This document shows positions 6,847-64,000 of a DNA stretch of 64,000 nt, one piece after another. Every line of letters starts with the position of its first letter. The first letter of the stretch is position 1. The stretch is taken from contig OZ038378.1 in NCBI GenBank assembly GCA_964036045.1, positions 26,474,001 to 26,538,000 of the forward strand, in the 5' to 3' direction. A program made the translations under genes and the position numbers. The stretch comes from Eutreptiella sp. 'Long Island Sound 2002' (Eukaryota > Protista > Euglenida). The notes below the pieces were generated by a model. That model searched no databases, was not told the DNA's origin, and saw only the letters and a program-made list of their open reading frames with translations.

Positions 6847-6879
<33 letters not shown>

Positions 6880-12800: not shown

Positions 12801-15800
12801 GCCGCAATACCGGTACTTCAAGCGGAAAAAACGAGGAAGGCATTGAAAAGCCCATTCTCTTTCAATTGGGTGGGAAATACACGCCATTCGTCCATTTCAA
12901 AAAATGGCCTACAATATTGGGTCAAACACACAAAGAAAATTCACAAAGAAAATTTGGAATCTATAGAGCGTGTCAAAAACTTCAAGACGCACAAGGAGTA
13001 CAAGATCACACCGATTCCAATCCTCAAAAAGTCAAACGCGCCACACGTCAACGAGTGCCCAATCATCAAGCACAAATTTGTCGAAGAGATCTGTGATGTT
13101 CGTGACAAAAGAGCGAATCATGCGCAAACACCGCCACCAAGGGCCAAAACAAAAAGGAAAGAGTGGGCACAACAATGAAAAAACATGAAGTGCCAAAAGG
13201 TTGAATGGGGGTTTGGTACACTTCCTTCACTAGGCACACACTAGAAGACCCAATTCCGTTCTAGCCTAGATGGCGCTAGAAGTCTAGAACGGAAAACAGG
13301 GGGGGTTACCCCCCCCCCCGTGGGGGTAAGTGATGGGTACTTTGAGGGGTCTAACTTGGACCCCCCCCCCCATCCGTACTTGGGGGCCCATGCTTTGTTT
13401 TTCGCAATTTCACTGTTTTCACCTGAATTCGGAGTGGAAAAAATTTCGTTCTAGCGGCGTTCTAGCAGCGTTCTAGCAAGCGGTGCTAGAACTCGCTAGA
13501 ACATCGCTAGAACGACGCTAGACCGATATATATTAATGCTCTGCCACTCCTCAAAGAGAAGCTGCCCCGGCTACCATGGCCAGCCGTGGCCAATCACAGG
13601 GTGGCGATGCTCAACCGGAGTCCCAGAGCGCCGGGTCCCCCCCCCCCCCTTGGGGGTACGACCTGACATCCAAAGGTCTCGGCCTCCACCCGGGATAGGC
13701 TGTTTCACTGGTGCAAAAAAATGACCACAAACCCCCAACAAATCTATATATTTCCGAAAACACCAATTTTCAACCAACACGTTTTTGGGGATTCCTCTTG
13801 TGACACCCCAACCCGCCCGGGGTTTCACTGTCACCTGTGAAACCCCGGGGTTAGGACTGTGCTGAACTACACTCTGGGCTATATTCAACCCCTTACGCCT
13901 GTCTACATACCCCCCTTGGGATGGTGGTGGTGGTTCATTTTCGCCGGGAGGGATTATATGAGCACCTAAGTGTGCTTACTAGTGCAGGGTAGTTTCAGTG
14001 TCAACAGTGAAACTCTGCCTTACTCCAGAGGATATGACATAGTATCAACGACTGGAGCACATAGCTGTAGGAACTTGATGACCGGAGATAGTTTCACTGT
14101 TGACAGTGAAACTGATTGTGATGCCGTTGCGTGCGTGTGTGTGTACTGAGAAAACGGTAAGGCATTAAGCCCTTTCACTGTTGGCACTACAACTATTTCC
14201 AAAACTGTGGTGTCTAGGGGTAAACAGGGAAAGCGGATAAAGTGAATTTTATTTTTTTGAAGATGCCTTTAAAAGTCGGAACCGGAAATATCGCCGGACC
14301 GTCGTCTGGTCCAATGGTTATAACCCTCGTCTCGTACCACTGGGGGGTGGGTTCGATTCTCACTAGATCCCCCATCCTAGCCACCCTGTGGCATACCACA
14401 CCAGTACATGGTCACCCACTAGACATGGTAAGTGCCCCGTTGCAGAGGGGGTACACTACTAGTACTACCAAACCGGTAGTTTTTAGACATGTTTTGTAGT
14501 ATATAGTTGACCATGTAGTGAGACACCAGATTTCTAGCCCTGGTTGTAGGAAAAGTACCCCACCAGGACTTGGAGGCATCAATAGAGTTGTACCACCCGT
14601 TATGTCCTTGTGGCTTCCCTGTGGATGTGGTGCATGGGGGGACAGTGGGGTGCCAGGTGAGGATCTCTTTGACGTTATGCCCCCCCCAATGTACTTGCAT
14701 TCACTCCATTGGGACTGCTTTCAGGTGGGAGGCATGCACAACACTAGATCACAAGGACTTTCACTGTCAACAGTGAAACCACTTGCAGCCACTTCCTGTT
14801 AGTACCACATGTTGTCTTTCCTCCTCTGCACAATTTTTGCTAGTCTGTTGTTGTATCTGCTGACACCTTCTCATCACTAACTTCCACTGGCAGCTGTGAA
14901 ACCACTGGTTGTCGTCTGCTTGTTCTGGCTGTATGTGATCTGCCTTTGACGCCTTAGAGGGCATTATGACTGACAACAGTGCCCCCCCATTCAGTCTACG
15001 AGACTTGAGCTCGGGGTTGTATGACGTCTTGGACCGTGTTGACATGTACCAAGACGGGGACTCACTGGTGGGGTGCGCTCTGGGGGGAGGACCACCTTTG
15101 ACTCTTGTGGAGATGGCCCTGGAGTTGCGTTTGAATCCTCGAACAAGACGAAGTATTGCGGAACTGAACCAGGACTGGCCGAGTCGTGGGTCTAAGCAAT
15201 GGCTATTGCGCTTCGTGCCTGATGGGTTCAAGCTCTTCCGCTGGCAGTCCCAACGCCATAGCATCACGTGGTAGCATTCCACGTAGGCGTGTAGCTGCTC
15301 CTGCATAGTCAGAAAAAAAGGAACTATAGTCACGACCACGGGGCGGTTGCTGGTGCTGGATCATCTTATCGGCTACAGCCCGGCGGTCTGCCTTGTCAGA
15401 CGCTTTGCTAGACAGGTAAAAAAGAGTGTGAAGGCTTTGGTGCAGTAGGATATCCTCTGACTGAACCAAGCTTGTTGAGTCCATGAGGGCAGGTGGAAAT
15501 TTGAAATTGTTTGGCCAAATGTTGGTACTTGTTACACAGGAGGCCTTAGGATTATCCTCCATCTCACTTGTTCTGATATCTACAAAGGGGGGCGTGCCTG
15601 AGGTCAAACAGTGCAACATGTTTTGCAACCTACCTTGCACCGTTTGGAAACATCCCAATGTTATATGGGGCTTCTGTTGGAACGTGGTTCCTTGTCGAGC
15701 CTTTCTGATGGTTGAAAACAGGGACTCATATTGCTCCAGTGTGGTAGCAATGAGATCATGCTTTGATGCTTTCACAAGACGAGACAACATAGATTCCCCT

Positions 15801-18800
15801 TTCTCTTCAACATGTGCAGTACCTGGCAATGCATCATGGAAGCAACTCCACAAAAGGAGAGCAATGCGGATAGTGTTTTTATAGTTGCCGTCACTACGTG
15901 TCGGCTTGATCTTCCGCAGCAAAAACAGGCTGCATTCTAAAACCTTGCGTGCTGCAACACCAATGTCAGAGGCCCGATGTCTCCAGGAGCAGTCACGCAC
16001 CATTATACCTAACTGCAAGACAGTAGGAACATAAGCCTGCAATAATTCCCGCAGGGCCTCCCGGCGCTCTTTCCATAGGGAAGTTTCACTGTCAACAGTG
16101 AAACTCCGGAAGCCATGGTCGAATTGAGACTGCAATGCGGGATACGCAAGGTAGCACGAAAGAATGAGCCTCTCCAGGACAATGAGAGCGGGGTCTTGGT
16201 ACACCCGTGTGGGAGTTGGATCCATTAAGAAGCAATCATACTCCAGGTAGATGAAAAAAAGGTTAAAAAGCCTTGTATAAAGCAATGACACACACCTTGT
16301 AAGCATTCCCAATCCCATAGACAGGGCATATGTCACGGAGCGCACCGCGTATTGGAGAAGCACCATGCTCCTTATTGTACACAACCTTTGCAACCCTCCA
16401 CCATATGTTCATGTCACAAAAGAATACCTTCACGGGGTTCCGGTTCCCAGGATTGTCTTGCAATAACCGGACCAACACGTCCCCCAATCCCGCCGTCTTG
16501 GTGACATTGATGTCCCAGAACCCGTATGGCTGCCATGATGAAGTCGTGGGGTTGCCCCGGCGAATATCCAATGGACAGCGAAGAAGACCAAGGGGCAGTC
16601 GATCCGATCCCAGATCCTGCACAACAGTCAAAAACTCAGTGACCGAGTCCCGCATATGCAGTGCCACGTCCTTGACCCGTGTTGTCAATTTCTCTGCGGA
16701 AGGCCACCAAGCGTAGCACATTCTCACCGACAGGCCTGTGAGGACAGCGACAGCAGTGCATGACAAAGAGATGTCCCGTGGTCCATCTGGATTTTTGCTG
16801 TACCGGCTCTTGCAAGACTGGCCTGCCCATGTCACATAGCATCCTTGTGTCATTTCTTGGCGGATCCGCTCTTGTGCAAGGGCAACCCGGTTGGCCAATG
16901 GTAATTCCCGATGGAGTATAAGCCCACTTCCCCGCAACTCAAGCCGCTATTCCTTGGTCAATGTTGTCATAACCCTTGTACTCGGGACCGTTCCTGCCAC
17001 TTTCATCGGCTTTGCCGAGCACCAGCATGGTACTGCTTAAGCACTTTCTTCCGAGCTATGTGCTCCGCCTCCTCAAAGGCTTCCTTAGCATTGCCAACCC
17101 CTTGTGCACCAATGAATGGAGCCCTTGCCCTAGCTGATTGGTGTTGAACAGAAGGTGGTGCAGTGTCAAGCCCGAGGGATTGGGGCATGTCATGGTACGC
17201 TCGGAGCGCCCTCCACATCTCCATATAGCAGTTATTGCACACAGTACCGGCCCCCTAGGCCCCTAGGCCTTGGGAACGGGCCAGCAACCTCTAGCGACGC
17301 CAGCCGACCCAGCCTCCTCCTCCATCTGCATGCACATGCGCCACCACCCACGCCCTCCCCATGCATTGCCAGGCGCAAAGGTGAGGGTATCCTCCCTCCT
17401 TTCTTCACAGGTGTACCTGCAGATGTGAAATTTGAGGGTTAGTGGATCAGGGGATTAACGGATTGCAGCACACCACCACAGAATGTCGAACACCTGCCAT
17501 CCAGCTACCTGGGCTTGCCCATGAGAGCCGCTGTGGTAGGCCACCGCCCTGGCAAGGTGGATACCCCATCAGGAAATGCAATTTATCTTTCTTTCTGCTT
17601 GTTGTGGTGCCCAACCAGAGGAGAAAACAGTGCATGTGTGTGTTCTAAAGCCAGTGGAAGATGATTCAAAAAACAAGCATGCAGTTTCACGCATTTGTGG
17701 GCAGTTTCGGATGTGGCTCTTGGGCCAACCGCATGGTTTGGATCCCTCCAGACAACCCTCTGCCTTGTCACACGGGAAGACCTTATGTTCCCTTTTGCCA
17801 CCCTGCACGACTACTGTCAATCACGTGAACTGTTGTCGTCCACACCTACGTCTGTGCAGTCGGCCAACGAAGATGGACGTGAGCTTATTTCACAAACTTC
17901 ATTGGCGAAGCTGAGACCTGCGGAAGAGGCTGCCCAAAAACAAAGCTGGGGCAGCCCACGGGAATCCGATGCGAGCATGCTTCAGTCAGTGGGGTCTGGC
18001 TCGCGGATGTCCTTTCGCTCTGGGTCCATCATGGCAAGTAGTGCGCCAAGCAGCCAAAGACGGTACGTGGCACATTCCAAATGTACCCTCGTTCCACACC
18101 GCTTTGCAGCCTCATACAAGTGAGGCTGCAACACTCACCAATCCTCCCCAACCCAAACCAACCCTAACTAACCCTATGCCGCCGTCGAAGACTTAAGAGG
18201 GTTGAGACGTGCTGGAAGAGGTTCAAAGAGAGTCAGAGAGGGATGAGGCTCCGGAGCGCCATGGAGAAGCAAAAGGTGGCACAGAGCCGGGCACGCATCC
18301 TTACATGGGACTGGCCATTGCAGGCCGGCGTGCGCTAATTGAAGGGCAACCCACAGCGGTTGGGAGGGTAGCAGATGTGAGCAGATGCGAGTAGAAAGGT
18401 AAACGGCGGAAGTTCACAGGAAACCATGGTGATCTTTGGGGACCGATAGTGGTATGGTGATGGTCATACCCACCACCGCCATGTTCAGCCTTTCAGTGTA
18501 CACTATCAGGGGCCACTGTCAAGGATGGTTGGAGAAATTGCAGAGGGCTTAAGGAGTGGGGGAAGTGGGGCTGTGGAGAGCGGCATACGCACAGGTACCA
18601 CGGACGATTTTTTTGCAGGTACGTCACGGCGTTCGTCCTGCCCTTGATCCGGCACGGGGCTGACCGCGTGTGGGCGCTGTGCGGCGGCATCCAGCGCATC
18701 CTCCTGCCGACAGACGTGGAGCTGTACATGCGGTTTCTGCACACAGACACGGCCAACCTCCCGTTTGATGTCCGCGCCTCCCTCGCAAACTACGGCGCCA

Positions 18801-42399: not shown

Positions 42400-43960
42400 G
42401 GCCTCCTGCCTGCCTCTGTAGTCGCCTTGTCCAACCCACTTTCCCGCGGCAGAAGCGTGGAAGCCCTCAGCAGGGCATGGGCCACTGCTGGAGAAAAGGG
42501 GCCAGATGCCGTTGCAGTCTGGGCTGACAGGAGCTCAATGCACAAAGCAGCAACGCTATCGATGGGCGAGGTGACTCAGTCATATGACGTCCGTCCAAAA
42601 AGCAAACCTGATGCTTCATCTCTTTCTTTGAACTCTAAAGGCCCACTTCTTTGGGACACCATTTCGGTATTAATGTCGCGCCCCAAGTGTTCATGTGCGT
42701 CATGCAAGTCGTTACATGCCATCTGTACAAGCTCGGAGTGTGTCTTGTTTTGTACATAGACAACATGATGATTGCAGGCCGCTCACAGCAGGAATGCATG
42801 CCTGCACTGCGCCTCACCTTACAAGCGTTGCAAGAACAAATTTTCCGCAACAAAGACGGAAGAACGTGGAGTTCGCCCAGCGCGACCCCCCATTTTCTCG
42901 TTTCGAAGTGTTTTCGCACTTGCAGTCCCCAACTGCCCCTCAGAATTGGGGTTTCAGTCAACCTCCGGCCGCTGTGGGTCAGACAAGAGGGCCTGCGCTG
43001 CGGGTCTGCGGCGCACAGGGGGGTTCCGCACTCACCAATGCAGGCGCTCCCCGTTGGCGGCTGCCGTCGCCTGCACGCGCACTGTGCAATGCACGTCCGT
43101 CTGCTGCGGAGAATACATTGCTGTCTTTTCCCGCCCCAGTCCCAGTCCCCATCGGCACATACCGATTTCCCCCTCCGGTTTGTACGTTTGCTGCGTACTT
43201 CGTGCATGTGTTTCGGTTTGCTGCAAATCTGTGCCCCTGGCACACGGATGGGGCCCTGCGGTCCGCTTTGGTTCGACGGCCAAGGTAAATACCCAGGCCC
43301 ACTGTGGCATCCCTCGCCTGTAGTCCGGTGCCGTTCCTGAACATACGTGGGTAGAACGCCCGGCCTCGTGCCCATATACCGACCTCCGAGTATCACTGGT
43401 GGGCTGGTGCATTTCCTCAATTTCTTTGAAGCCCCTCTTCTGCAGATGGGCACGTTCACAGGCTCTCACGTTCACAGGCTGTGCGGCCCCAGCCATGCGT
43501 TTGAGCACTGCTTCTCCGCCATCACTGATGCAGCAGCGCTTCTGGGGCTTCGGGTGCATCACAATGTCAAGCTGCATTGACCGCCCAAGGACGGGTGCCC
43601 ATGCGCCCCTTGGCCTGCCAGAGATGCTGCTCCACTCTCATGTTGGTTGCTGAGGTTCGCTCTGCTAGCAAAAAAAATCGACACAGAGGCGCAGATGCAT
43701 GAATGGGGTCCGAGTATCTGACCCGCAAACATGCCTAACGGATACAGCCTTTGTGAACCGGCCTAATGTACAGTACAACCCCTCTCCCTGGAGCGTGGCA
43801 GCATGTCCTGGATACCACCTTCAGCAACCAAGAAGTCTCCCTGTGTTTCCACAGTTTGACAAGATATTAGATGATTTCCCCAACTAATGATAGGAGGCTG
43901 CAGATATGAGGCTGCACACCTACATGCCCTCAGACTACTGCTGCAAGGCACTTTCAGTCG
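42400..43960 (+). mobile_element. Highly decayed DIRS-like (tyrosine-recombinase retrotransposon) RT plus methyltransferase remnant
   Basis: HFGINVAPQVFMCVMQVVTCHLYKLGVCLVLYIDNMMIAGRSQQEC matches the DIRS RT pattern (PFG...AP.VF.......L..LG.....Y.DD). SLPVFPQFDKIL...EAADM near 43830-43930 resembles the DIRS MT FPP motif. No YR or terminal repeats recognised. Confidence 0.55.
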
Positions 43961-47700: not shown

Positions 47701-50700
47701 GCTACGGTGTGGCACCACCTACAAAGGCTGCGCCAATACAAGTCGGAGCGCTAGGCGCGCCAGCAACAACAGCGGGTGGCGCGGTGACAGCACAAACAGC
47801 GACGCGCGCAGGGGAAGCCGGCAGCGTCATCCAACGACAGCTCGGTTCAGCGGGAAAAATGCCCGTGGAAAGGGGGAGCCAAGAAGACGGCCGAGGATAT
47901 GCACGGGCCCTGTCATCCCACAAGGGGCCCGCAGAGGCCCGTAGTACCAGGTGACGGGACTGGAGGAAGACCCCATATTAAGTGTAGGGACGGCGCTTCT
48001 CACGCCGCCACAACACTGCGCCAAGGCTAGACGCCCGGAGCAGCACCTCCGTCTGCCACGCCTTCGGGTTTGCACGACACAAAGACACAGACAGTGCGCC
48101 ACATGCGCCGCGGTGGGACGGGGTGTTCGGCACTGCTGCGCCCGGGGGCACGTTGGGCATCCCCGCCCCTGTGCGTAGGAGCGCATCCGAGGAGCAGCAC
48201 TGACCTGCACATCCGGTGCTTGCACGCCTAGAAAGGGGTGGGGGGTACCCAGGCGGCCAAGCGTCGCAAGGCTGGGGCCCAGCCGGCGCTCAGGGGCCCT
48301 CGAGAGTGAGCGATGAAGAAAGTGTTGGAGGGAGGCGCCCCGTGTGCCCCTCAAGCGGCCGTGCCGAGGAGTGCAGCAAGTGGCCCGCCCCGGGCGTGCG
48401 GGTACGGAGGCCACCTAACCGCCCAACCCTAGAGGGTTCTAACGTAGGCACAAGACGGCAATGCAAGCACGTGGCTTTTATGTGCTTGGAACTTAATATA
48501 TAGCTGATGGGTGACTGTTTCCGTGATGATATATTCGGGGCAGCGGGTGTTTATCGTTGCAAATGTTTTGCTCAAACGCAGATTGTGCTCCCTATCCTCA
48601 GCGCTGTATTGGATCGGTAAGTGTGGTTGGCCGAATGCGTCTGTAAAACCATGGAAAAAAAGTGTGGCTGCTCAGCTACTTTTAGCAAATTCCATTGTCG
48701 AATGCCGTAGGTATACATGGATTTTGGGCCAAGCCTGCCAAACCCCTACGAAGAGGCCAACATTCGAGGCATACACGAGGACTACCACACGGCAGAAAGA
48801 CAAAAAGAGCACATGAAAAGGGGGTGGGAGGATGCAGTCCTGTGCCATGAGCACTACAAGTTCCCGCGCCTCACGGCCAGTGAGAGAATCCCACGTACAA
48901 AATCGCCGTCGCACGAGGCTGTGGTGCTGCTTCGTATCTTGCGCAACGTCACCCAACTTGTACCGGGCTGCAACAACACAAACATATCAACGTAGCGCAG
49001 AGGCATCATCGGTTGGGAGTATTCACCCCACTACCCGACAAGCAAGGCTGATACGTCCCCTCAAACTGTGAGGTATTGGCTAGCTCATATATGCGTGAGC
49101 CAAACCTTCATCGCCACAGAAAGTTCTGCCCATTCTTTGCATTGGGTGTGGGTGAGATCCGAAAAGGGCACAGACACCCTCTTGCCGCTGCCACGGACAC
49201 ACATCACAACACCTTCCCCTACATTCCTACTACAAATGCTGGTGCTCGGCAATAAAAAGCCTAAACTACAGCCGGGCGCTGACATTATGCTTGCACCCTG
49301 CCCCCACTACACAAGAAGGCAAAAAGGGTCTTTTGAAGCTTATTCGGTTGCTCTGCATGTCCTGGTAAGACCCATTGGTTGTAGTCGTTTTTCAACATCT
49401 TTCTCCATGTCAACAGCAATGTACATGGGGAAATATGTGCCGTCAAGGGAATAAGTGAACCCCCCTCATCAATCACACACACTTTCATGTTTCTCCCGCC
49501 TTCGGGGTTTGTACCTATCGGTAGAGACACCGAGAAGCAACACACTATTTGGGGGCCAGCGCTTGTTGCGACCGAACCCCAAACACCAACAGCTATCCCC
49601 CGGGAGGGTGCGGACAACTTGAGACTACACGGAGGTATTCTAGCTGGTGCGGTCAAAAGATGGTAGACAAATATCCACCACTTGGTGACTGTCGACCATG
49701 CGCTAGACAGGCCACTTGAATCCGTGCATCGCTCATCCCCATTGGCATCACAGGGGTTAGTCGCGCCGCCCGGACTGCACGGATTCCTATTTCAGGGGAA
49801 AGGGTAGGGAGAAGAAGAAGTGGTACTACATTGTGCTTCCGCACCTTTGGGGGTTTGGCCGGCTGGGGTGTCATGTCTTCATTATTACAATATTAGCCGA
49901 AGCAAGAGATAGAAACCCCCGTGCATGGGCATGAGTGGTGACAGAATAGCTTTCCAAAAACGGAGAAGGCCGGTCGGAACAAAGTATTTTCATTTTCCGT
50001 TTTTATGGTGTCCTCGATGTACCAACTCACCTATTTTGGGCACTGATTTGGGTGTAGGGTTCGTAACCGGTTTTACCAATTCATCGGAAAAACCCATTAT
50101 CGGCAATAACCGGAGATTATTTTCAAAACAATTGGCACACTTGGTTAGTTTGAAAACTGATTTGAACCAATTAATTGGACTGGTTCCAAAATTTTTTGGG
50201 TCTTTTCGGCAGTACATTTTGTTCATCTTTTGCACTGAACGGAGGCTTTGGTAGCAAGAAGGAATGGCCGTTGGTGGATTACAACTTCCGACGTAGTTTT
50301 GATCACTCTGCTCTGACTTGTATGGGCTCTCTTTTGCCGATTGCAAGATTTTGGTTGGTAAAGAGGAATCAATCCGAAAGACCGGCTTTTTTGAAAACTA
50401 TTAATCGGCCAAACCGGTTATTTTTGTAAAAAATAATCGTTTAAAACCGATTATTTTCAAAACTAGCAGGTTCCAAACCTCATGTGGGTGGAGAACAATG
50501 TCTTTGATTAGTGCCCTAATAGTGTTTGATGCTGAAAAACCAAACCAAGGCAGCAAGTAGAGCAAGAGCAATATGTGGATCGAATCAATGGATAGTTTTG
50601 AAATCCAGTGTAGCACAGAAGGGCTGCAGATAGACAAAGCAGGCTTAAATACAAAGATTCAATCACAAAGGGATAAAACAAATGATTCTTAAGTGAAAAC

Positions 50701-53100
50701 TGGCATGACTCTTGCCTCCCAATTAGCATCAAGCACTTCATGTGCACTCTTTTGGATGAAATGGAGTTAGTTAGGAATGTGGGGCAAAGGAGTTAGGCCA
50801 GACACAGAATATGACTTGGCCAAGCAACTGAATTCAGAAACAGTTATAAAGTAGAACCACAATAAGTGGTAGAACCAGTTGCGTATAGGGGAATTGGGGT
50901 GGGGGCCACTAGGCTTAACCTCCAAGGCCTTAGGCATGAAATGCCTACTTTATTTCGGTATAACCTTCATGAAGGAAGATACCTCCGCTCAGTTGAGTGG
51001 TAGGGATTCACTTCATAGGGGGCTAGGGTTATAACCCTAGTTACTTTGAGAAAGTGTACTTTTAGCTTCAAAAGAGAGATAAAAATACTTAAGCAAGTCT
51101 TAGCATCAAGAAAAGAATTTTGAGGGGGCTTGGCCTGGATTAAGACCTCCAAGAAAGACATGGCAGTGACTTTTTCTTACTCCCCCCTTGAGTACTAGTT
51201 GATCATGCTAGTAGGACCAAGGAAAAAGGCTCAAATTTACCCAAAATTACCTCAGAAAATCCATTAAACCAACTAAAAACATTCCCATCAGTTCATACAA
51301 GCCTATCACACTGTAGGTGCCCTCGAAAATCAGTGTAATGTACCGCGGATGATGTCCCTCCGATGGGGCATTCCTCAAAAGTCGCCATCGTGCGGCGAAA
51401 ACTTTTGGTAAAAATTTGGAGGTAGTGGGGTTTGAACCGAGGACTCCCTCCCTAGAGCACACATGCTTGCCCACTAGGGTACAGTCGAACGCTGTAATGC
51501 GGACGGCTATCGGTGTATAACCAGCGTTTTAGTAAACGTCTTGACCAAGGGCCAGGGCGGAGCAATACTCCCAATGAAGAACACAAATCTCCAGGAGCTG
51601 AGAAAAATAGAAAATGGAACCAACAGGGAGTGAATCCTGTGGTTTAGCGAGAGGGGTAGCGATTTAAGAAGTCAAATCGCTAAAAATTGACGAAACGACG
51701 TTAGAAATCGTCTTTTGAAGACTAAAACCTAAAGTCGCAGACAAGCGCAACAGAAGCGGACTCCAAAAAAGAGTTGCGCAAGCTTAAACGGCTCTAGAAA
51801 AAGAAGATATGAGCCGTAGTTTTCAAAGTTTTAAAAGAAATTTTTGCACAGTTGCATCAAAACTTTTATAAACTTTAGGAAAAAGGATTGTAAAGATACT
51901 CACACCACAGAGCAGGTGGACAACCCACCTCTCAGGTATGTAAGTGTGATTTCACACGCATGCATTGCGTTCGCGTTTGTTGCTTCGTTAAAACGCTAGG
52001 GTTGTCACCGGTGTGTTCGCTGGGGGTTCGGGTGCTCACGTCCTTTGCTCTGCACAGGCCAAAACTGAGATGAACGGTATGCGAAGCAAATGGAGCATGC
52101 AGCGCGCATGTAGGATTAGTGTATGCGCTATGCTCGCGATGCATGTGCCTCATTCAGGCATTCACACGTTGTGTCGCTTTCCCTGTGCCCCATTCCACCC
52201 TTTTCTTCTCTTCACAGGTCAAAAAAGAAAGTGCTTGCTCGTGTTTGTGTTGCCCTTGCTTCAAAATAGGGTTGCTGAAAAAGCTTAGGCTTGTTTGGCG
52301 TTGTGCAGTGCGCCATTCCATCTCCTTTTTCTGCAGGAAACAAGATAAGAACAGCATGCATGACACACAGTGCATTAATCGATTAGGGTTGTTTATAATT
52401 CGCCGTAGGGTTGTTCAAACGCTTAGGTTTGTTTTGCGTTCGTGTTACCTTCGGCATTCACATGATGCGTGGTGAGTAAGGTAGGTAAGCCCCGGAGTAG
52501 CTCACCTCCTGGTTGAGTCACGTTATGATTTGTTGTTGTGGGTTGAATTAGGAGAAACAGAGTGAGATTGGTAAACCTGCGCATACCTGTGCATGCATAT
52601 GGCGCATTAAAGGGTAGGCCACGCGTGTTGCGCACGGTACAACTCTTGCTTAGGTTACCCAGGGGCTGCACCCTATGTTCTCTAACGGAACGAGTGGAGT
52701 TCCTTAAGCTTGCTTGCTTGTAACGGGGTAAGAGGACAGGGTATTATAGGGCAGCCTAAGAAGCGTATAATACGTGGAGGCTGTCCTGGTTCCTCAGCCA
52801 CTCACGCTGTTCATTGGCCTTTGCGTTGCAGGTTGGCAGGTGAGGGTGATTGGTGCAGTCTCTTGCCGCGCTAAAACATGCGGCGCAGATCACAACACAA
52901 AAAAAACTGTGCCTCAGGCTGGAGTGGCGAGGGCAGTCCAACTTGTTCAACATACACGCTGTGCACGCAAAAAGAGCACTCCTTCCCTCCAAGCCATGAC
53001 AGAGAAACACCTAGTGGCATCCCTGTTAGGCCACAGTCGCTTAGTAGCGCTGTGTTCTGTTCTTATCACACAGGAGGGTCAATAGGTCCCGAGACTTCAT

Positions 53101-53635
53101 TGTCATGACCACCCAGTAGCGTGTGTAGGTGTTAGGGTCAGCAAGCCGGGCAGGTGACAAGTGCAAGTGCTGAGTGCTCACCCTGCCTTCGAAGGCTGGT
53201 GCTGGTGTTAGTGAGTGTAGTGTAGTGGTGTCCCCTGTCCCGCGTGCTTTTCCACCTGGGCAGGGGAGTGCGTTAGCTTTTGGCCTTTGGAAAAATGGCC
53301 ATTTTGTATGCCCTTGGCACACTTGGCCACCCCTCCCCTCTAGTAGGTAGGGCTTTTGCCGTCTTCCCCAAAGGATAGGCGCCAACCCAACAACTGGGCG
53401 CCATAGGAGTGGTAATAGTACCTGATTAGGACCTTTGGTCCGACGTCAGCGAAGCCCGGTCTCCGGGAGCCACGCCGGGTAGAGAAGTGAGACACGTACA
53501 GACATACGTAGCACACTTAGGGGTATGGTAAACCCTGTAAGGAAGGGTAGAAACCCATGCGTCTGGACCAGCGAGGGGTCCTACCTCTGGGCACGCTTGT
53601 CCCCAAGGAGGGTGGACACACCTTGCTTCATAACA
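53101..53635 (-). repeat. 3' LTR of the Gypsy element (535 bp)
   Basis: Minus strand TGTTATGA...TCATGACA inverted termini, preceded by purine-rich AGGGGGAAATGACAAGCAAGG (53636-53656). The partner LTR is not in the window. Confidence 0.7.
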
Positions 53636-54039
53636 CCTTGCTTGTCATTTCCCCCTGGAGTAGAAAGCCACCGTTCTTCGTTGGCTCCCCAAGGTCATAC
53701 CATCAGGGCAGCTCCCATGCACCACACGGTCAACAAGGCACACACTTGCTGGGTGGCTGCAAACCTGATAAGCGGCCATGTGGTTCACGCTGGTAATCAT
53801 AAGCATGGGACTGCAGGGCACAGCCATGGCTGGAACAGTACTCTGCAAGTAGCGGATGTTTAGGTGTTTGGAATGCCGAACCCGATTGAGGGTGGGAGTT
53901 ACTACATTCACGGTAACCGGAGCTCTACGGGAGCTCTGAACATGTCCTGGCACACACTGAGTAGGCCTAGCTATTGAGCACAGGAGTGCTCATCGCCCCT
54001 GGAAGGTTAGAAATCAGTAAATAGTAAGGTACAAGGAGA

Positions 54040-55350
54040 TTAGTTTCTCTTCTTCCGCTGGGACAGAGTCTCAGCACGGGTTAGTAGCTGTCCCTCGTTG
54101 TTCTCAACAAGGTAGGAGCGAAAGATGGGGTTGATACTCCCATCCGGCTGTATAAAGGCGGACATGGGTTCCCAGGTCGCCTCAGATAGCCCATAGCCAT
54201 GCCACAGGGCTAGGAATTTCAGGCCCTGTTTATACTCGTGGCGGGCAATACCTGCAACCACGTAGTAGCCATCGACTGCCATCTCATCGGCAGTCATCTT
54301 GTCGAGTTCGTCTGCCTCCTCTGGGCTGGCAGCGTTCCCTAGGTTGATACGCTCGACCTCACTGTCGCTGAGGCGCCACTCATCCCAGCACAAATCGTCA
54401 GGGGAATGATAGTGCCGCAACTGCTTAGGCGCACAAAGCAGTTCACAAACTAGACGTGGACTGCACCTGACGTGGATCCTAGATCCATCTATCGTGATGA
54501 CACCATAGGGCCCAAAATAAGGGTCCTGTAGGCAGTTGCGGGGACAGGAGGGGAGGCGTGAATGGTGAACCAAAACAAGGTCACCAACCTTGAAGCTGGC
54601 AGGTCGGCGTAGGCGATTCCGTCGGCTCAGTTGACGGTCACGGATATGTCTCAGGTTAGTCCCAGGTTGGTTAGCCATAGACTGTTTGTGTTCCAGCCAA
54701 TCCCCAACAGGGCTCTTGAAGTCCTCAGGAAAGGGGATTTTGAAGAACCAAGCAGGTCGTCCTCCATGGAACAGCTCTTGGGGGGTGAAACCTGTAGAAG
54801 ACCTCTTCCGAGAGTTCATGGACAGCACTGCCCAGGGCACTAGGCGTACCCCATCTTTGGTACGTTCCTGTTTCATCAGGATTCTCACGTTCTCTTCCAC
54901 CACCCGGTTTTGTCTCTCACAAGGAGGATTAGACGTGTGGGTATACGGCACACCTGTGGTTACCTCAACGTTGAGGGCATTCAGAACTCGTTTGTACCAT
55001 CCAGCGTGACTGCGGATGCGTACATGCTCATCAGAATGCACCTGCTTAGGTGCTCCATAGCGTTCGAACCATTGTTCGGCCAACATTTTCACAGTCTGCT
55101 CACCTGTGATTTTCTTATTGCCAACGAACACACGGGTGAAGCGGGACAGGCCACAGGTAACCACTAGGCAACTATCATAGCCGCCAAAGCGAGGTAGGCC
55201 GTGGATGAAATCCACGTAGAGAACAGAGTTAGTATAATAGGGTATGGGTAAGCCGGAAATCAGTCCCCTATCCCTACTGTTGCTCTGCTTGCTGGCATGA
55301 CAGCCAAAAGCATCCAGAATGGTCTGCATACGGGACCTCAGTTCAGTCAA
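54040..55350 (-). pseudogene. Integrase (DDE) plus C-terminal chromodomain
   Basis: YVDF..., VHSDE..., CERQNRVVE triad, GPY module (YFGPYGV), chromodomain YYVVAGIARHE...KFLALWHGYGLSEATWEP. Confidence 0.93.
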
Positions 55351-55362
55351 GGTTAGACCAGA

Positions 55363-56220
55363 TCAGAAACACTCACGGAAGAATTCCACTGAGCGATTAG
55401 CGCCAGTGTGACCTGAGCTGAGATGGGACCACTGTAGGCACCAATCGAGTCGGGCCTCAGGCACGACAATACGGTCCTCGTAGAAGAGGCACTGGTTGTG
55501 TTTATACCACTGGTGCCCGTCTATGACACGGTGTTCGACACCAGTGCTGAGGGTTTGGAGAATTTCTTTATACTCTGACTGATAGTCGGTTAGGCTCCAA
55601 CCCTGGAGGATTCCAGCAGTCCGCATGGACAGGTAAAGCTGGACATCCATACGCGGGAAAGCCTCTTTGACGAGTGCTTCAGAGATCTCACCAATAAGAG
55701 CATCGAAGTTGTTCCGCGATATATAGTCAGACAGTCCATTTTTTATACCAGGGATGTGATGGACTGTCAACCTGAACTGGCTCAGGTAAGTCCACCACCG
55801 TTTTAATTTCGCTTTCTCCGGTGGTGGGCCCTTCTGAAAGGACTTCACTGGTTCCTGGTCACAGAGCAAGACAATAGGATTAGATCCCAATAGTCGGGAC
55901 TGTGATGAGAGCACCAACATACCGGCCAGGAGTTCCTGGTCATAGGTGCTGTAATTGGAACGCGCTTGGTTCCATTTCTAGTTCCAGTGTCCCAGTGGCA
56001 CAAGCCGCCACTCATTGGAAGGATAGTCGTGCTTCAAGGAGCGGTCACGGTTCCGTCGGCTAGTACGATACTGGCAGTGGGTTAGTTCAGCTGGGTTAAG
56101 TTCCTGCCATTGGTATATCATTCCTCCCCCCCCTACATCACTGGCATCAGTGATCAGGACTATCTCGCCCTTAGGGCGGGGTACGCCCAGGCAGTTGGAG
56201 GAGGCAATTTTCTTCTTCAA
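55363..56220 (-). pseudogene. RNase H and integrase zinc-binding region
   Basis: IVLITDASDVG, NYSTYDQELLA, CDQEP, HHIPGIKNGLSDYISR, HLSSGHTG. In-frame stops at 55978 and 55363. Confidence 0.9.
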
Positions 56221-56223
56221 CTC

Positions 56224-57277
56224 CTAGAAACACTCCTCCTCTCTGGCGGTCCACCTCCAGGAAGTAGTTTTCTTGATTAGGTCAGTGAGAAGGGCAGAGG
56301 AGTAGGTAAAATTGTGGATGTGTTGCCTATAGAAGTTACAGGCGCCCACAAAACTCCTCACGTCGTGTAGACCCTTCTTAGGGTCATCGCGAATCTGCAT
56401 GTCCTGTAGGGGCTGCATCTTAGACGCGGCTGGTTTCCACCAGCCATACCGCGCGTCGAAAGCCAAATACTCCATCTCCTCCTTCATGAACTCGCATTTT
56501 TCGAGTTTGATTCGGTGATGGTTTTTCTGACAAACAATGAAAAACTCATGGAGGAGAAGGACATGGTCCTCTTGGGTATTGGTACCCAAACTCACGTCAT
56601 CGATGTGGGCCTCCATTTCAGCCCCTCAAGAAATCACTCCTGTACCAGAGGTCTGCGCCTCAGTATGTACAAAATTTTGTTCATCAGTTCTTGGAAGAGT
56701 GCTGGGGCGTTAGCCACCCCAAAAGGCATAACCTTCCACTTAAACACACGACCCTTTAGGGTTATAAAAGCTAGCAGCTCCTGAGCTGCGGCTGTTAGGT
56801 CAACCTGCCCAAAACCACTGCGATTGTCCATTTTGGTCTTGTACCGGCATTTGGCAATACGCTCCAGGGTGTTTTCCATGTTGGGAATACTCCCTGACTG
56901 GTTTTGGGTTTTTTTGTTGACCTCACCATAGTCAACAACCAATCGCAGGGCAGTCGATCCTGGTTTAGCAACCAGGAAACAGAGACTGCATTGGTGGGGG
57001 TAGTCCCCCTTCTTATATTCCTCCACGAGGCCAGCATCAATACATTCCTGGATCTGGCGCTCGATTTCTTCAACCTGTTCCTGAGGAGCAGGGTAGGGAC
57101 GACGCCTCACTCGCGTCTTCTCAAATTCAGGTTTCAGTTTCAGGTCCATCTGGACCAGTTTTTCACAGGACAGGGGAGGCGGCAGGGCGCTTAACACCTC
57201 CTCATAGGTTAGGAGCAGTATCTTCAGTCGGGGGTCAACGTTCAGACTCTCTTTTTTCTGCAGGAAATCCTCCTGAG
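56224..57277 (-). pseudogene. Reverse transcriptase (frameshifted)
   Basis: LRLVVDYGEVN, KMDNRSGFGQV, VMPFGVANAPALFQ, AHIDDV, KLEKCEF, VRSFVGACNFYR. Frameshift near 56620 and a stop at 56224. Confidence 0.93.
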
Positions 57278-57920
57278 TGTAATAGGAAACTCTGGTAAAG
57301 GTATCTCTACCATCGTTCCCCATTGAACTGTAGTGATTTTCTGTTGGTTGGTAGTAATGAAGGCGACTTCCTGACAGAACTCGCAGAAGCGACCAGGAAC
57401 GCGTGTGCGCGAGTACAGCAAAGTAAATATGATAGCAAACAATGTAGGCTTTTGATTTTGTGATGATTTATTTTATTATTTATTGATTGCAAAACTATAT
57501 GTTCATTTGTGCATAGGTGCATGGCCCTCCAGGGCAACCACCCGTCAGCCCTGCCGATGAAGTCAGACGGGTGGTGGACAGAAACGGACATGCTCCAGAT
57601 CAAGAACAAGATGTGTTAGTGCTTGTATGGAGGTCATCGGGGTTCAGGGAGCTGGAGGGGACGTTTACGGCGACTTATGCAAAATGAAGTGGAGTTTTGA
57701 AAATACGAGTTATGGATATGATTTTGGAAGGTGAGACAGAGTTACGGTTGAAAGCAAGGACAAAGTTTGAAAAGTATGATAAGTACTCAAGGTCGGAAAC
57801 CAACAGATTTGGGATTGTCAAATCCGAAGATCAGAATATGAGCCCAACAAAGACTACGCGTCAGCGTAGTTATAACATGGTAAGCAGAGTGTGTAATTTG
57901 GCCTTCCTGCGCAGGTGACT

Positions 57921-58217
57921 ATGGCGGAGAGTACATACGAGAGGATGGAGAGATATCGCTGCGAGAGAGACGATCTGCAAGCAGCGCTGAAGGATCAGAC
58001 GAAGACGGAAGAGCGATTACGACAAGAGCGCGACGATCACAAGCAGACAGAAGAGCGCCTACGGCAAGAGCGAGATCAGTGGAAGGAGAAGTATGAGACC
58101 CTAATCAAGGACTGTCGCGAAGGCCGCACCCCACGACTACGAGACAAGAGGAGAACCCATCGTGGCCGTCGACACAACGCAAAATTTGGGAAGCGATCAA
58201 CATCAGCGCCAGCGTGA
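57921..58217 (+). CDS. Short coiled-coil/basic ORF after the PBS of the nested LTR element (possible gag remnant)
   Basis: ATG 57921, duplicated heptad EERLRQERD, Arg-rich tail. No CCHC motif seen. Confidence 0.4.
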   Translation: MAESTYERMERYRCERDDLQAALKDQTKTEERLRQERDDHKQTEERLRQERDQWKEKYETLIKDCREGRTPRLRDKRRTHRGRRHNAKFGKRSTSAPA

Positions 58218-59542
58218 GTGGGAGTCATCAAGCTGAGGCCTTGACGGACGACGAGATGTACTTGCTGGTGGACGCGCAGGTGCAGAGAGCGCTGCAGTAT
58301 GTTGCCCTGTTCCACAATGCTCGCAGTGAGACCTGGGGTATTGGCGCTGGGGGTACGAAGGAGCAGCTGGTGTGAGAGCGAGCTTGCCACTACCTGTGAC
58401 AAGCGCTTGGCCGTGGCCACGTGAGCGACACAAGGCGCCTGTGGTCAAGAGCGAGTATGGCTGTATGGGAGTTGAGCGGTGGACGCCTACATGCAGCGTG
58501 GCCGGTGTCTTTGAGGTGCAGTGCCTCAAGTGAGCCCTGCTGGAGTATTATTGAGACAGCGAGCGAAGCAGCAATGGCCCTGTGCTTGGCGGCGATGAGT
58601 ACGCGCATGGACATCGCCAACAGCGCCAAGAGGAGATGCAGTCAACGTGCCTGGACCTGTGACATTGTGAACAGATTTTTGTGGTTGCTAAGTTGCTTTT
58701 GTTTGGGAAATTTATTATAAATTTTATTTCCATTCTCTGAGTGGGTGGAGCCCAGTGACAACTTGTGAGCTGAGCCCCAGTGCTGATATATGTCTTACTG
58801 AACATAGAGAAGAAGAGTAAGCACTTCTCTGTGAAGGGAGTGCCAATATGTACAGGATCGTTTTGTTTTCTTTTTTTTGATTGCTCTTGTTGATGTTGGC
58901 TCCAGGATGTACTGACTCCCGTGTGAAGGGAGTGCAGCAGTTTTCTTATTTGTACCAGCCACTCCTCTAAGGGTCGTGGCAGGTAAAATGTGAAGGGAGT
59001 GTAATAGGAAACTCTGGTAAAGGTATCTCTACCATCGTTCCCCATTGAACTGTAGTGATTTTCTGTTGGTTGGTAGTAATGAAGGCGATTTCCTGACAGA
59101 ACTCGCAGAAGCGACCAGGAACGCGTGTGCGCGAGTACAGCAAAGTAAATATGATAGCAAACAATGTAGGCTTTTGATTTTGTGATGATTTATTTTATTA
59201 TTTATTGATTGCAAAACTATATGTTCATTTGTGCAAAGGTGCATGGCCCTCCAGGGCAACCACCCGTCAGCCCTGCCGATGAAGTCAGACGGGTGGTGGA
59301 CAGAAACGGACATGCTCCAGATCAAGAACAAGATGTGTTAGTGCTTGTATGGAGGTCATCGGGGTTCAGGGAGCTGGAGGGGACGTTTACGGCGACTTAT
59401 GCAAAATGAAGTGGAGTTTTGAAAATACGAGTTATGGATATGATTTTGGAAGGTGAGACAGAGTTACGGTTGAAAGCAAGGACAAAGTTTGAAAAGTATG
59501 ATAAGTACTCAAGGTCGGAAACCAACAGATTTGGGATTGTCA

Positions 59543-60518
59543 CCACTGCTACCATGTAATAAAATCCACACTAAGGTTAGATTCTATCCTTCTTGAAAAA
59601 ATGTGAATTCCTTCAAGGCATGAAACAACCCATAGAATTGTGTGATAGGAAATGAAAATGAAAATGAAAATGAAAATCCCCACTCTACTATGCTTCAATT
59701 TCAAATTAAAAACACAAGTAGACAAACAACAAAACACAAAGCAAATGTGACACACAACAACACAAACAAAACAATTGGTGTGAACCTATGATGATTGTCG
59801 ACGAGTGAGGCTGAATCACTTGGAGTCCCCTTGATATTATACCCACTTCATTGATGATTGAAACCCCTTCACTTGAGGATGGTAAATTCTGCAAGATTCT
59901 GAGAGAGAGAGAGGTGCATACATGAAAATCATATTTATTTACAACACATCATTGATCATGGCATGCATGCATCATGGTCGTATCTCACATTGAGAACACA
60001 ATGACTCCCAAATAAGCGAATGTGATGATAGTACCGAAATTAACATGCATCAATCCCATAACCAATCATGAAACTCATGGCATCCTAAAATTAAAAGCGA
60101 AGACATCAAACCAAAATTCAATGGCACACTCGCCATGACATGCATAATGAACACAAACAAGATGTCGTATGGCAAATAACCATCAAAAGGACATGGGGCA
60201 TTCAAATTGAGTAAATAATTCGGAATCGCTTGAGACATACTTCGAATGAATCCACGAGAGCAAATTCGAAGTCAACAATGGATACTTGAATGCAAAATTC
60301 AATGAAACGTATACAGGCAAACCCTCAACAATCCGTCATAATTCCTGAAAAACCCTGACGTCGTGGTTATCCTGTAACGCATACCATCACCGGATCTTAT
60401 GCTATACGACTCATGATGACCCATCAAGAATGCGGATAAAGGTGTCGATCCCCACTGATCCCTAATTATACATTGTGTGTCATTTTGTGTTTGTGCTGCT
60501 CCACTGACTCGTATCACA
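59543..60518 (-). mobile_element. Putative 5' LTR (59555-60518) plus PBS (59543-59554) of a third LTR family, opposite orientation
   Basis: Minus strand TGTGATA...TATTACA termini followed immediately by TGGTAGCAGTGG. The first 9 nt complement an initiator tRNA-Met 3' end of the CUGCUACCA type. Confidence 0.6.
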
Positions 60519-63079
60519 CTGTGGTGCGCCTATCTCAAAGGATAGAACTAACACTATTAGCACCACAGGACCGTCAATCAGCAGACCAGCGTGCGCACGA
60601 CCCAACAGGCGGGCTCACGCACACAGAGCATCAGGGATCGCAATTCTGAACTCAGCGATCTCCTGCTGGCATCCCTACCCTATCATCATAGGTCACTGGC
60701 AGACCTCTGGACTCAAACTCCTGCTGCTGTTTATCCCTTGTCTATCCTAACTCTGTGGTCACATTACACTCCCCTCCCAAGCCTGATGCCACCTGAAATG
60801 GCGTCAGACTGATAAGAAAATCAATGGACCACTGAGTGGAGCACCAGTGTAGACTGTTTGCTCTGATCGCTGCACCCAGAAGAAAAAACACATGTAAACA
60901 CTTGTAAAAATGTAGACCCTGGTACTGGTGCTGGTATTGGGCTCACAGTGATCACGCACTGGACAGACCAGTATTGCCAGCAGCACAGAGCTCCAAATGA
61001 TGCCAAAGGTCTCCACCTGCATCTCGAATGGCTTACACAAAGAGAAATTACATAATCTGTGCAGATCAACGTACCTGCACCAACTGGCGGAACTGTGCGA
61101 TCTCCAAAAATACAGTTCTCAGAGAGCGCTGCAGTATGTTGCCCTGTTCCACAATGCTCGCAGTGAGACCTGGGGTATTGGCGCTGGGGGTACGAAGGAG
61201 CAGCTGGTGTGAGAGCGAGCTTGCCACTACCTGTGACAAGCGCTTGGCCGTGGCCACGTGAGCGACACAAGGCGCCTGTGGTCAAGAGCGAGTATGGCTG
61301 TATGGGAGTTGAGCGGTGGACGCCTACATGCAGCGTGGCCGGTGTCTTTGAGGTGCAGTGCCTCAAGTGAGCCCTGCTGGAGTATTATTGAGACAGCGAG
61401 CGAAGCAGCAATGGCCCTGTGCTTGGCGGCGATGGGTACGCGCATGGACATCGCCAACAGCGCCAAGAGGAGATGCAGTCAACGTGCCTGGACCTGTGAC
61501 ATTGTGAACAAATTTTTGTGGTTGCTAAGTTGCTTTTGTTTGGGAAATTTATTATAAATTTTATTTCCATTCTCTGAGTGGGTGGAGCCCAGTGACAACT
61601 TGTGAGCTGAGCCCCAGTGCTGATATATGTCTTACTGAACATAGAGAAGAAGAGTAAGCACTTCTCTGTGAAGGGAGTGCCAATATGTACAGGATCGTTT
61701 TGTTTTCTCTTTTTTGATTGCTCTTGTTGATGTTGGCTCCAGGATGTACTGACTCCCGTGTGAAGGGAGTGCAGCAGTTTTCTTATTTGTACCAGCCACT
61801 CCTCTAAGGGTCGTGGCAGGTAAAATGTGAAGGGAGTGTAATAGGAAACTCTGGTAAAGGTATCTCTACCATCGTTCCCCATTGAACTGTAGTGATTTTC
61901 TGTTGGTTGGTAGTAATGAAGGCGACTTCCTGACAGAACTCGCAGAAGCGACCAGGAACGCGTGTGCGCGAGTACAGCAAAGTAAATATGATAGCAAACA
62001 ATGTAGGCTTTTGATTTTGTGATGATTTATTTTATTATTTATTGATTCCAAAACTATATGTTCATTTGTGCATAGGTGCATGGCCCTCCAGGGCAACCAC
62101 CCGTCAGCCCTGCCGATGAAGTCAGACGGGTGGTGGACAGAAACGGACATGCTCCAGATCAAGAACAAGATGTGTTAGTGCTTGTATGGAGGTCATCGGG
62201 GTTCAGGGAGCTGGAGGGGACGTTTACGGCGACTTATGCAAAATGGAGTGGAGTTTTGAAAATACGAGTTATGGATATGATTTTGGAAGGTGAGACAGAG
62301 TTACGGTTGAAAGCAAGGACAAAGTTTGAAAAGTATGATAAGTACTCACGGTCGGAAACCAACAGATTTGGGATTGTCAAATCCGAAGATCAGAATATGA
62401 GCCCAACAAAGACTACGCGTCAGCGTAGTTATAACACTGAGCATGGAGGTTGCTCTTGCCATGCTCTTTCTCTTTCTGCCGATCAGCAGTTTCGGCAGGT
62501 ACTGAGCCATCATCCCACTCAGGGGGGCATTGCTGCCCATAGTGCAGAGAATAGACTAGGGGTATCTCAGGGTCAAGCTGCGTGTAGGAATCATCGTCCT
62601 CCTCAGACCAGATGGAGATTTTTCCAGGTGTGTCTGAGGTAATGCAGCCGTTCTTGGCGCTCAATACCTTCGGCCTTCAGGTACAACAGCCGTCGGAGTT
62701 CCTGAGTGTCATGCTCAGACAGTGGCATGTTATTAGAAGCAGGCCGCGCTAGAGCATCAGGACTCTGAGCAACGGGTTCACCTGAGTGAGTATGCTGCAT
62801 GTGCAGCACCGGTTTCCCAACAGGGGAAGTTGGTTCTGAGGTTGACTCTAGGTCTACCTCTTCCACTAACAGCTGGGCCAGAAAGGCACTGTGTTTGAGT
62901 TCAACATAGCTGGGATCAACAGGAGGGATGGTGCTGGCGATTTTAGACAGTTGGTTGTCAGCATGCTCCTTTACAGCAGCAGGTTCCAGATAGCCATCGG
63001 GGTATTCACACCCTATAAATGTGGCAGATAGGTGCTCAAGAGATCGTTTTTTGAGATTAAAAGGGGTCAAGCCACGATT

Positions 63080-63560
63080 TTTGGCCATGACCTCTTTCAG
63101 TAGCAGCTGATCCAGATCACACAGGGGTACAGGGTTGAGGGATTGATTGACACGGGATAAGAAACTGGCCCACTCAGGGGCCTGCATAGCTGTGTCTGAG
63201 TCCTCAAGCACGTGAATGGGACTGTCGGGGAGTTGCACCCTTCCCACAGTCATTCTTTCCAGCATACGGCGCCAATAAGCGTGTTCACCTGAACAACCCC
63301 AGTCAGGGGTGCACATAACAACCCTTCCTCCCTCATAAGCGATTTTGGTTCAAACTTTCGCGAGCAGGGAGAAGGGAGGGTTAGCATACCCTAGGCCCAT
63401 TGCTTTCCAGAAGAAACAGAAAGCGTTGTTCAAATGTTTCGAGCAATACAACTGCATGATGTGCTGTTGTTGGCTCGCGAACAATTCCACCTGGATCTCA
63501 TCCAGGGTTACCTGAAGGGCCGCCAGTCCATTTTCAAGAATGTGACGGGCCAATTGGTAT
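63080..63560 (-). pseudogene. Dam-like DNA N6-adenine methyltransferase domain inside Gypsy pol
   Basis: VELFASQQQH (63487) ... LYCS...NAFCFFW ... YANPPFSLLAKV*TKIAYEGGRVVMCTPDW...YWRRML. NPPF at 63382-63371; single in-frame TGA at 63350-63352. Confidence 0.75.
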
Positions 63561-63599
63561 TTTTCAGCGCGATAGTTAGTCTTGGCGGCGTAGCGCAGC

Positions 63600-63984
63600 C
63601 CAGACTCTTTTCGTCCTGACAGCTCCAAAGGTACGGAGAAGAGCCCACTGCCAAAGTCGCAGTTCAGAGAATAGGTGCGTTGAAGAAAGAACATTTTTAC
63701 CTGGGGGTTTCTTCGTAGGAAGTCGGTGCCAATGACGATGCCAAAGGCGTCAGTATCCAACACTCTGCAGTGTGTTTGGTCACAGTTTTGTCGCCAAGAC
63801 AAATAGTCACATCGACACCCCCCAAGGAATGGATGGTACGCCCATCCCCTACTCTTAAGGCCACTGTCTTAGTTTTCTTGAAAGTCTTTAGCAGGCGCCG
63901 GGCCACTATAGAGAGTGTTGCGCCGGTGTCAAGCACTGCTCGGAAAAATTGAGCCCTGATTTTCACGAGGATCCAGAAAACCAA
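63600..63984 (-). pseudogene. Retropepsin-like aspartic protease of Gypsy pol
   Basis: AVLDTGATLSIV, VGDG flap, IVIGTDFLRR. Frameshift near 63790. Confidence 0.9.
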
Positions 63985-64000
63985 GTCCTCCTCTTCGGAG

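Follow-up and report, generated by a model that had tools for sequence, protein, structure and literature searches.

A predicted Dam-like N6-adenine methyltransferase domain in the Pol frame of an abundant Ty3/Gypsy retrotransposon with a chromodomain in Eutreptiella

Results

The window, by which we mean the whole stretch of 64,000 nucleotides analysed here, contains an LTR retrotransposon that is almost certainly of the DAM-LTR kind. This copy is dead and belongs to a high-copy Ty3/Gypsy element with a chromodomain, whose Pol frame includes a predicted N6-adenine methyltransferase (MT) domain between the protease (PR) and the reverse transcriptase (RT). DAM-LTR retrotransposons were defined in May 2026 by Fernandez-Moreno et al. 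(bioRxiv 10.64898/2026.05.21.726589), who name five DAM-LTR lineages as well as EpiLTRs and in whose data chromodomain-bearing LTR elements make up 30.9% of DAM-TEs. The original prediction had taken the architecture to be undescribed, which is not the case, as the preprint reports DAM-LTRs with chromodomain forms included. The kind of element found in the window has been known since that month, and what is added here is a family of very large size whose catalytic motif is intact, an intact relative (P0232) and a link to PCIF1. The preprint is the only account of DAM-LTRs returned by a literature search that had most subscription journals outside its coverage. A PR-DAM-RT order is absent from its main text, where the word "protease" has 0 occurrences (Fig. 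2B may show the order), and PCIF1/CAPAM is unmentioned in that main text.

Organization of the outer element

Read on the minus strand, the window begins just within pol, and the outer element encodes, in this order, PR, MT, a linker, RT, RNase H (RH), integrase (IN) and a chromodomain. The aspartic protease, with its DTG motif, lies at 63700–63985 (Pfam RVP, E 3.7e-4; also aligned by tblastn with the family protein P0004) and is broken in two by a frameshift that the same tblastn comparison places near 63772. The MT domain is found at 63083–63574 and is followed by an acidic, poorly conserved linker (62437–63082) that resumes at 57272, past a nested element, and has no Pfam matches in 62621–63079 or 62437–62676. 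The end of the linker and the RT occupy 56250–57272 (Pfam RVT_1; core at about 56969–56457, with a HIDD motif), with a frameshift near 56636 and a stop at 56628. RNase H follows at 55774–56250 (Pfam RT_RNaseH and RT_RNaseH_2), with stops at 56226 and 55980, and the DDE integrase at 54280–55500 (Pfam rve, E 4.7e-6; core 55230–54940), with a stop at 55365. The chromodomain at the integrase's C-terminal end (54100–54270) scores E 0.0032, under the Pfam cut-off, and Pol terminates at 54040. All of these features are on the minus strand.

Judged by its PR-RT-RH-DDE integrase order, the outer element has a Pol of the Ty3/Gypsy type, and Ty3 Gag-Pol is the best PDB match of the family protein P0221 (E 6.7e-55). 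A chromodomain at the integrase C-terminus, the mark of chromoviruses, is present in the window, in the divergent metagenome locus L002 (E 9.9e-7) and in the protein P0232, where it scores over the cut-off (E 5.8e-7). The proposed identity as a Ty3/Gypsy-type element with a chromodomain is thus borne out by the domain order and by the integrase and chromodomain matches.

Downstream of Pol on the same strand, a 3' region of about 2.4 kb (51671–54039) is found at the depth of the family and gave zero Pfam matches in six frames, no cytosine methyltransferase among them. It is followed by a putative 3' LTR with approximate borders (50505–51670, minus strand), where summed depth is about twice that of the internal region. 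This LTR has a CA end at 50505, and depth below 50502 drops about 50-fold in run X1. The 5' LTR and gag of the outer element lie outside the window end, and no PPT was identified in that element.

A nested LTR element (57278–62436) is inserted on the plus strand, in the orientation opposite to that of the outer element. Its 600-bp LTRs (57278–57877 and 61837–62436) differ by 3 mismatches; a PBS-like TGGTAAGCAGAG is found at 57878, a purine tract ahead of 61837 and a third, partial LTR at 59000–59542. The nested element is younger than the outer one and apparently non-autonomous. A 5-bp target duplication flanks it (57273–57277 and 62437–62441), and the empty site, with a joint of 57274 to 62440, is present in contigs of three of the four runs (X1, X5 and X20). 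Once the nested element is taken out, the linker continues into the RT. The original prediction of a linker of about 220 amino acids that joins the RT across this insertion is therefore correct by the duplication and the empty site, and had missed a frameshift near 62621. In total, the outer element carries five in-frame stops and three frameshifts in addition to the nested insertion, and the window copy is dead.

The intron borders inspected look like ordinary GT-AG ones. An Rfam search gave no match, and a host exon used as query matched only the protein encoded in the window itself.

The methyltransferase domain

The MT domain, about 160 amino acids long, is assigned to the Dam/DIRS/PCIF1 type of N6-adenine methyltransferases from profiles and from the predicted fold of a family member's domain. 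The peptide quoted in the original prediction is present as written, in the same frame as the C-terminal half of the protease and with a single nonsense codon, TGA at 63352–63350. In each of the four runs, at least 99.7% of the summed depth at this codon has another reading, which makes the stop private to the window copy. The peptide includes ELFAS (63473–63487), a predicted SAM-binding motif that reads DLFAx in most relatives, and the intact catalytic motif IV, YANPPF (63371–63388), both on the minus strand, together with NAF (63427–63419), TPDWG (63310–63296) and WRRML (63274–63260). A pattern of motif I and motif IV has a single match across the window's six frames and eight matches in 300 shuffled windows, a control that is indicative only because the pattern was composed after the motif was seen. 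Two 6-mers common to the borders of the MT were considered as a target duplication and rejected, as such sharing is at about chance level in 50-base windows.

Compared directly with the Pfam Dam model, the window copy scores E 0.15, below the cut-off, and eight family proteins reach at best E 0.0012, with no match in two of them. Indirect homology is much clearer. Sixty-one of 120 aligned homologue rows match Dam at E ≤ 1e-3 (best 5.7e-9), and the curated cut-off is passed by P0127, P0332 and P0353. A profile was built from 20 Dam-positive homologues, namely the rows listed among the Dam-positive ones and 26–43% identical to the window family; with it, the window domain reaches 139.7 bits (iE 2e-44), while the profile's two remaining matches stay below 0 bits. 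For the METHYLTRANSFERASE domain the direct Pfam Dam evidence is weak, and the evidence from indirect homology and fold is strong. A Dam/DIRS-type N6-adenine methyltransferase domain between PR and RT, as first proposed, is what these Dam matches and the profile score support.

In the wider alignment, the catalytic N is present in 115 of 120 rows, the first P in 116 and the complete NPPF in 81; no position is better conserved than this N and P among lineages that are 25–45% identical. Within the family, 107 of 120 proteins have NPP, followed by F or Y in 95.

Predicted fold and structural neighbours

A deep alignment gave a model of the P0004 MT domain with a pLDDT of 93.3, whereas a shallow alignment of 35 near-identical rows gave a pLDDT of only 37. 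The fold check that had been suggested for the MT peptide, run here on the P0004 domain, gave matches to N6-adenine methyltransferases, with PCIF1 as the best solved structure, where the suggested HMM check by direct Pfam Dam comparison fell short. The top named BFVD matches of the P0004 model are phage N6-adenine methyltransferases of the PF05869 type (E 2e-7 to 7e-6, TM 0.60–0.67), these best predicted-structure matches being but 12–17% identical. Among solved structures, Foldseek ranks PCIF1/CAPAM best (E 1.5e-4), and VIA-align also places PCIF1 first (Z 9.8, rmsd 3.9, 141 residues aligned), followed by a next match at Z 8.1, by T4 Dam and M.TaqI (both Z 7.2) and by E. coli Dam (Z 6.9). The lead of PCIF1 over the other solved structures, as seen with a predicted model, is moderate, and no PF05869-type phage Dam is among the solved-structure matches listed.

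Sequence searches against the same kinds of targets gave little. In the PDB the deep MT profile had 0 matches, and the single domain returned nothing relevant; the search with A2 matched the protease only. PHROGs gave 0 families, and tblastn of the MT domain against phages gave only matches at E 0.3–0.4. The best ESM Atlas match was 0.79, and one cluster at 0.77 with 14% Dam is taken as a lead only.

PCIF1/CAPAM (PDB 6irw, 6irx) resembles the MT domain in being the best solved match by two aligners and in sharing the NPPF motif, and one homologue, P0353, matches both the Dam and the PCIF1_WW models. The two differ in extent: the MT corresponds to a catalytic core of about 160 amino acids, whereas PCIF1 has about 480–490 amino acids in the structures and usually a WW domain, of which no match was found in window-family proteins. 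Identity is 17–19%, with 141 of 482 residues aligned.

A high-copy family and its relatives

Among 889 candidates, 317 MT homologues were found at E ≤ 1e-3, the best 120 of them at 82–90% identity. Within these best 120 of 317, a protease is encoded in the same frame in 99, an RT in 17 and both in 15. An open PR-MT-RT-RH frame, the check proposed for other copies, is present in P0004, which heads a cluster of 5370 members, and P0221 has an open MT-RT-RH-IN-chromodomain frame. The P0004 scan found 2 loci among 132 stretches, and the A1 pattern scans of metagenome and viral contigs gave no relative.

The divergent element at L002 has the same domain order, with an RT 45% and an MT 38% identical to those of P0004. 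P0232, from the L002 cluster, is an intact divergent element with one 2069-aa Gag-PR-MT-RT-RH-IN-chromodomain frame. With the L002 domain as query, 87 longer proteins and 573 representatives at 50% identity were found; for the best 150 representatives, a protease lies upstream in 29 of the 41 that have at least 60 upstream residues. Some MT homologues carry the protease downstream of the MT domain.

In eight of eight divergent proteins that hold it, the MT aligns at 36–48%, and the protease aligns at 39–43%, while the linker aligns in one of nine targets. Conservation of the MT at the level of the protease, beside a linker that mostly fails to align, points to selection on the MT domain. Within the family, columns with a shared variant number 7 of 155 in the MT and 18 of 221 in the linker, raw counts by which the MT is slightly more constrained.

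A sister family with NPRF for NPPF has also been amplified (clusters of 1049, 281, 266 and 218 members). In the MT tree it is sister to the window family, with support of 93 for the 21-row group that holds both; this tree retained 86 of 120 rows, all unnamed homologues, was built by a quick method with a midpoint root, and is silent on the donor and on the order of events.

The original prediction had allowed that the domain might be a one-off DIRS fragment, and a chance motif nested in a single copy would look similar. The weak direct Dam score and the further nested insertions in the window speak for such a reading, which we nevertheless regard as exceedingly improbable. Family proteins in the hundreds, together with several divergent lineages, have the domain at the same in-frame place, and GC content is equal across PR, MT, linker and RT (0.50–0.51). 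Coverage of the MT is within the range of RT and integrase in all four runs, and a clean removal of the MT between protease and linker is seen in none of the 15 joints listed of 246. The reading is refuted by P0004, P0221 and P0232, which carry the domain in open frames. On sequence evidence the MT domain is a family feature of a high-copy element and not a single-copy oddity, in agreement with the lineage feature that had been predicted.

Discussion

Relation to known elements

With DAM-LTRs the window element shares the Gypsy Pol order, a Dam-homologous domain in the Pol frame and NPP followed by an aromatic residue. As to long terminal repeats, a putative 3' one is suggested by doubled depth at about 50505–51670, and the 5' end is outside the window. 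The window family may be uncatalogued, as with such Dam scores it would seem to fall short of the E 1e-5 screen of the preprint. DAM-LTRs are probably undercounted more generally, because the window family scores under the usual Pfam thresholds (573 representatives match the L002 domain).

Like EpiLTRs, the element is an LTR element with both a DAM and a chromodomain. It falls outside the EpiLTRs, since no cytosine methyltransferase was found in 51670–54040 (six frames), in the linker, or in P0221, P0232, P0026 and P0027, in the last two of which Gag continues directly into PR.

DIRS1-like elements are defined by a tyrosine recombinase instead of a DDE integrase and have no aspartic protease. 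Compared by description, the window element differs from them in its protease, DDE integrase, chromodomain, Gypsy order and MT placed before the RT, and DIRS1-like identity was rejected on account of the rve integrase and the aspartic protease. The likeness is in the domain itself, as the available parts of two sources describe the same Dam-like type within a retroelement polyprotein (PMC4738411, PMC5890265). The DIRS MT domain has been proposed as the donor of the DAM-LTR domain (bioRxiv 10.64898/2026.05.21.726589), and, according to the accessible portion of PMC5890265, cytosine methyltransferases were captured in parallel.

A proposed role for the methyltransferase

On balance we think it probable that the MT, with its predicted N6-adenine methyltransferase fold, methylates the element's own RNA or its reverse-transcription intermediates. 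In active copies, the MT would be made within Gag-Pol and carried into the particle; from what is known of Ty3/Gypsy biology, its placement in Pol would mean synthesis together with RT and integrase, and hence packaging with the template RNA. The protease would free the MT, alone or still linked to the RT through the flexible linker. RNA, RNA:DNA hybrid and single-stranded DNA would then be within its reach ahead of any finished duplex, and it would bind SAM and methylate adenine N6 on nucleic acid within the particle, the likeliest substrate being RNA, RNA:DNA hybrid or single-stranded DNA over bare double-stranded DNA. The mark may make new copies look like the host's own, for instance by providing a seed for the 6mA maintenance of the host once they have integrated, as proposed in the preprint (bioRxiv 10.64898/2026.05.21.726589). 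The chromodomain would work separately and steer the integrase.

The element's own RNA and replication intermediates are favoured for these reasons and because of published observations. PCIF1 uses NPPF, and its substrates rank ssRNA > hybrid > ssDNA > dsDNA in the available part of a review (PMC10544176); Iyer et al. place the DIRS domains and PCIF1 in one clade, in the part of their paper at hand (PMC4738411); and a DAM assay in E. coli was negative for DNA methylation, for which the authors suggest a hybrid substrate (bioRxiv 10.64898/2026.05.21.726589). Likeness to PCIF1 suggests an RNA or RNA:DNA-hybrid substrate and could explain that negative assay.

A phage-Dam-like enzyme acting on double-stranded DNA, which would mark completed cDNA, sites of integration or the chromatin of the host under guidance of the chromodomain, seems to us quite improbable. 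The best viral fold matches are annotated as DNA N6-adenine methyltransferases, the Pfam family is Dam, and DAM-LTR insertions have elevated 6mA in three species, yet DNA was left unmethylated in the E. coli assay and eukaryotic DAMs are without part of the target-recognition region (bioRxiv 10.64898/2026.05.21.726589). The part given to the chromodomain fits poorly as well: ichthyosporean DAM-LTRs are without chromodomains (bioRxiv 10.64898/2026.05.21.726589), and in P0221 over 1200 residues lie between the MT and the chromodomain. The joint action of a methylation writer and a chromodomain reader, which the original prediction had envisaged, is doubtful because processing of Pol would likely part the two domains.

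The MT might instead be kept while catalytically dead or dispensable, as a SAM- or nucleic-acid-binding module that keeps hold of the template RNA or aids Pol in folding, packaging or localisation; this we consider possible but rather unlikely. Iyer et al. propose such a role for the DIRS-type domains, which they hold to be likely inactive, in the part of the paper available (PMC4738411), and no retrotransposon DAM proven active was found in the literature covered. The negative E. coli assay agrees with a dead module, as does the sister family, amplified past a thousand proteins with NPRF. So do changes near motif I, where in the predicted SAM pocket of the window family the usual D is replaced by E and the usual N by Q. 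Conservation of the catalytic N and the first P across such distant lineages argues against loss of catalysis, and so does the fact that NPPF belongs to an active enzyme, PCIF1.

The reading we prefer remains that the MT methylates the RNA of its own element or the replication intermediates. A narrower version, in which the DAM domain is a PCIF1-like RNA writer that acts in the particle on the cap-adjacent adenosine of the element's transcript, or on the RNA strand of replication hybrids, is unlikely in our estimate. If true, it would make the domain a transposon-encoded RNA modification enzyme, the domains of DAM-LTRs and DIRS elements would be instruments of RNA-level host mimicry, and the absence of DNA methylation in E. 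coli would be explained.

In the window family, copies whose NPPF is intact number in the thousands, P0232 offers an intact full-length element, and the NPRF sister family is a natural comparison. The nearest solved structure belongs to an RNA enzyme with a preference for RNA and hybrids over double-stranded DNA, which indicates the choice of substrates to try with these domains.

Spread and catalytic motifs of the outer family

The outer chromodomain Ty3/Gypsy family is present in all four runs whose contigs were compared with the window (X1, X5, X13 and X20), each of which carries a different organism label (A to D), and its protease, methyltransferase (MT), reverse transcriptase (RT) and integrase were covered in four out of four at 80% likeness. 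The catalytic motif of RT usually reads YxDD. Both HIDD, the motif of the outer family (window about 56610–56595, minus strand), and FFDD, found in the divergent metagenome locus L002, depart from this form. A decayed RT fragment with an LYIDN motif lies on the plus strand at 42639–43340 (Pfam RVT_1, E = 1.3e-5), and an MT profile search of the whole 64-kb window found no second MT domain.

The Gag-Pol junction

As read from family proteins, the Gag/Pol boundary of the outer family is located just past window position 64000. Gag and Pol seem to be separated by an in-frame stop, since two of the seven proteins that span the end of Gag (P0026, P0027, P0070, P0087, P0100, P0101 and P0212) terminate there, and the other five read on, with Y, W, Q (twice) or S at that position, in each case a single base away from an amber codon. 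Stop-codon read-through is described as an established strategy (10.1101/2022.12.06.519325). P0232, an intact Gag-to-chromodomain relative, has no stop at this junction.

Other features of the window

The LTR element nested in the outer copy (57278–62436, plus strand) contains LTR-like sequence in three copies, and one of its internal blocks is duplicated (58283–59542 versus 61120–62379, 99.4%). Its open reading frames are short and coiled-coil, it lacks an RT, and the depth over it is far below that of the outer family. A multi-exon host gene at about 18460–40100 (plus strand) encodes an adenylate/guanylate cyclase domain together with membrane segments and TPR repeats of the TmcB type. On the minus strand, 15203–16946 contains two open frames (401 and 227 aa) that overlap and have no Pfam match; they are possibly a decayed mobile-element gene. 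At 5769–11414, an imperfect 5.6-kb palindrome (83.6%) surrounds a CA/TG-rich satellite (about 7900–9300).

Variant domain orders and the NPRF sister family

At least two domain orders exist among the MT-bearing relatives. In P0283, P0296, P0335, P0353 and P0367, which fall on separate tree branches, the MT domain precedes a protease-like motif. P0130 carries one protease with a Dam-like domain on either side, the first at residues 11–94 (Pfam Dam, E = 6.2e-5) and the second in the usual position after the protease; this frame may be a chimera of nested copies.

Most of the homologues listed from a search with the MT domain of L002 (P0130–P0211) form a sister family in which motif IV reads NPRF. 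Its identity to the outer family is 75–79% in RT, versus 42% in the protease and 47–48% in MT, an unevenness that recombination could have produced. The NPRF sister family provides a natural control for catalysis.
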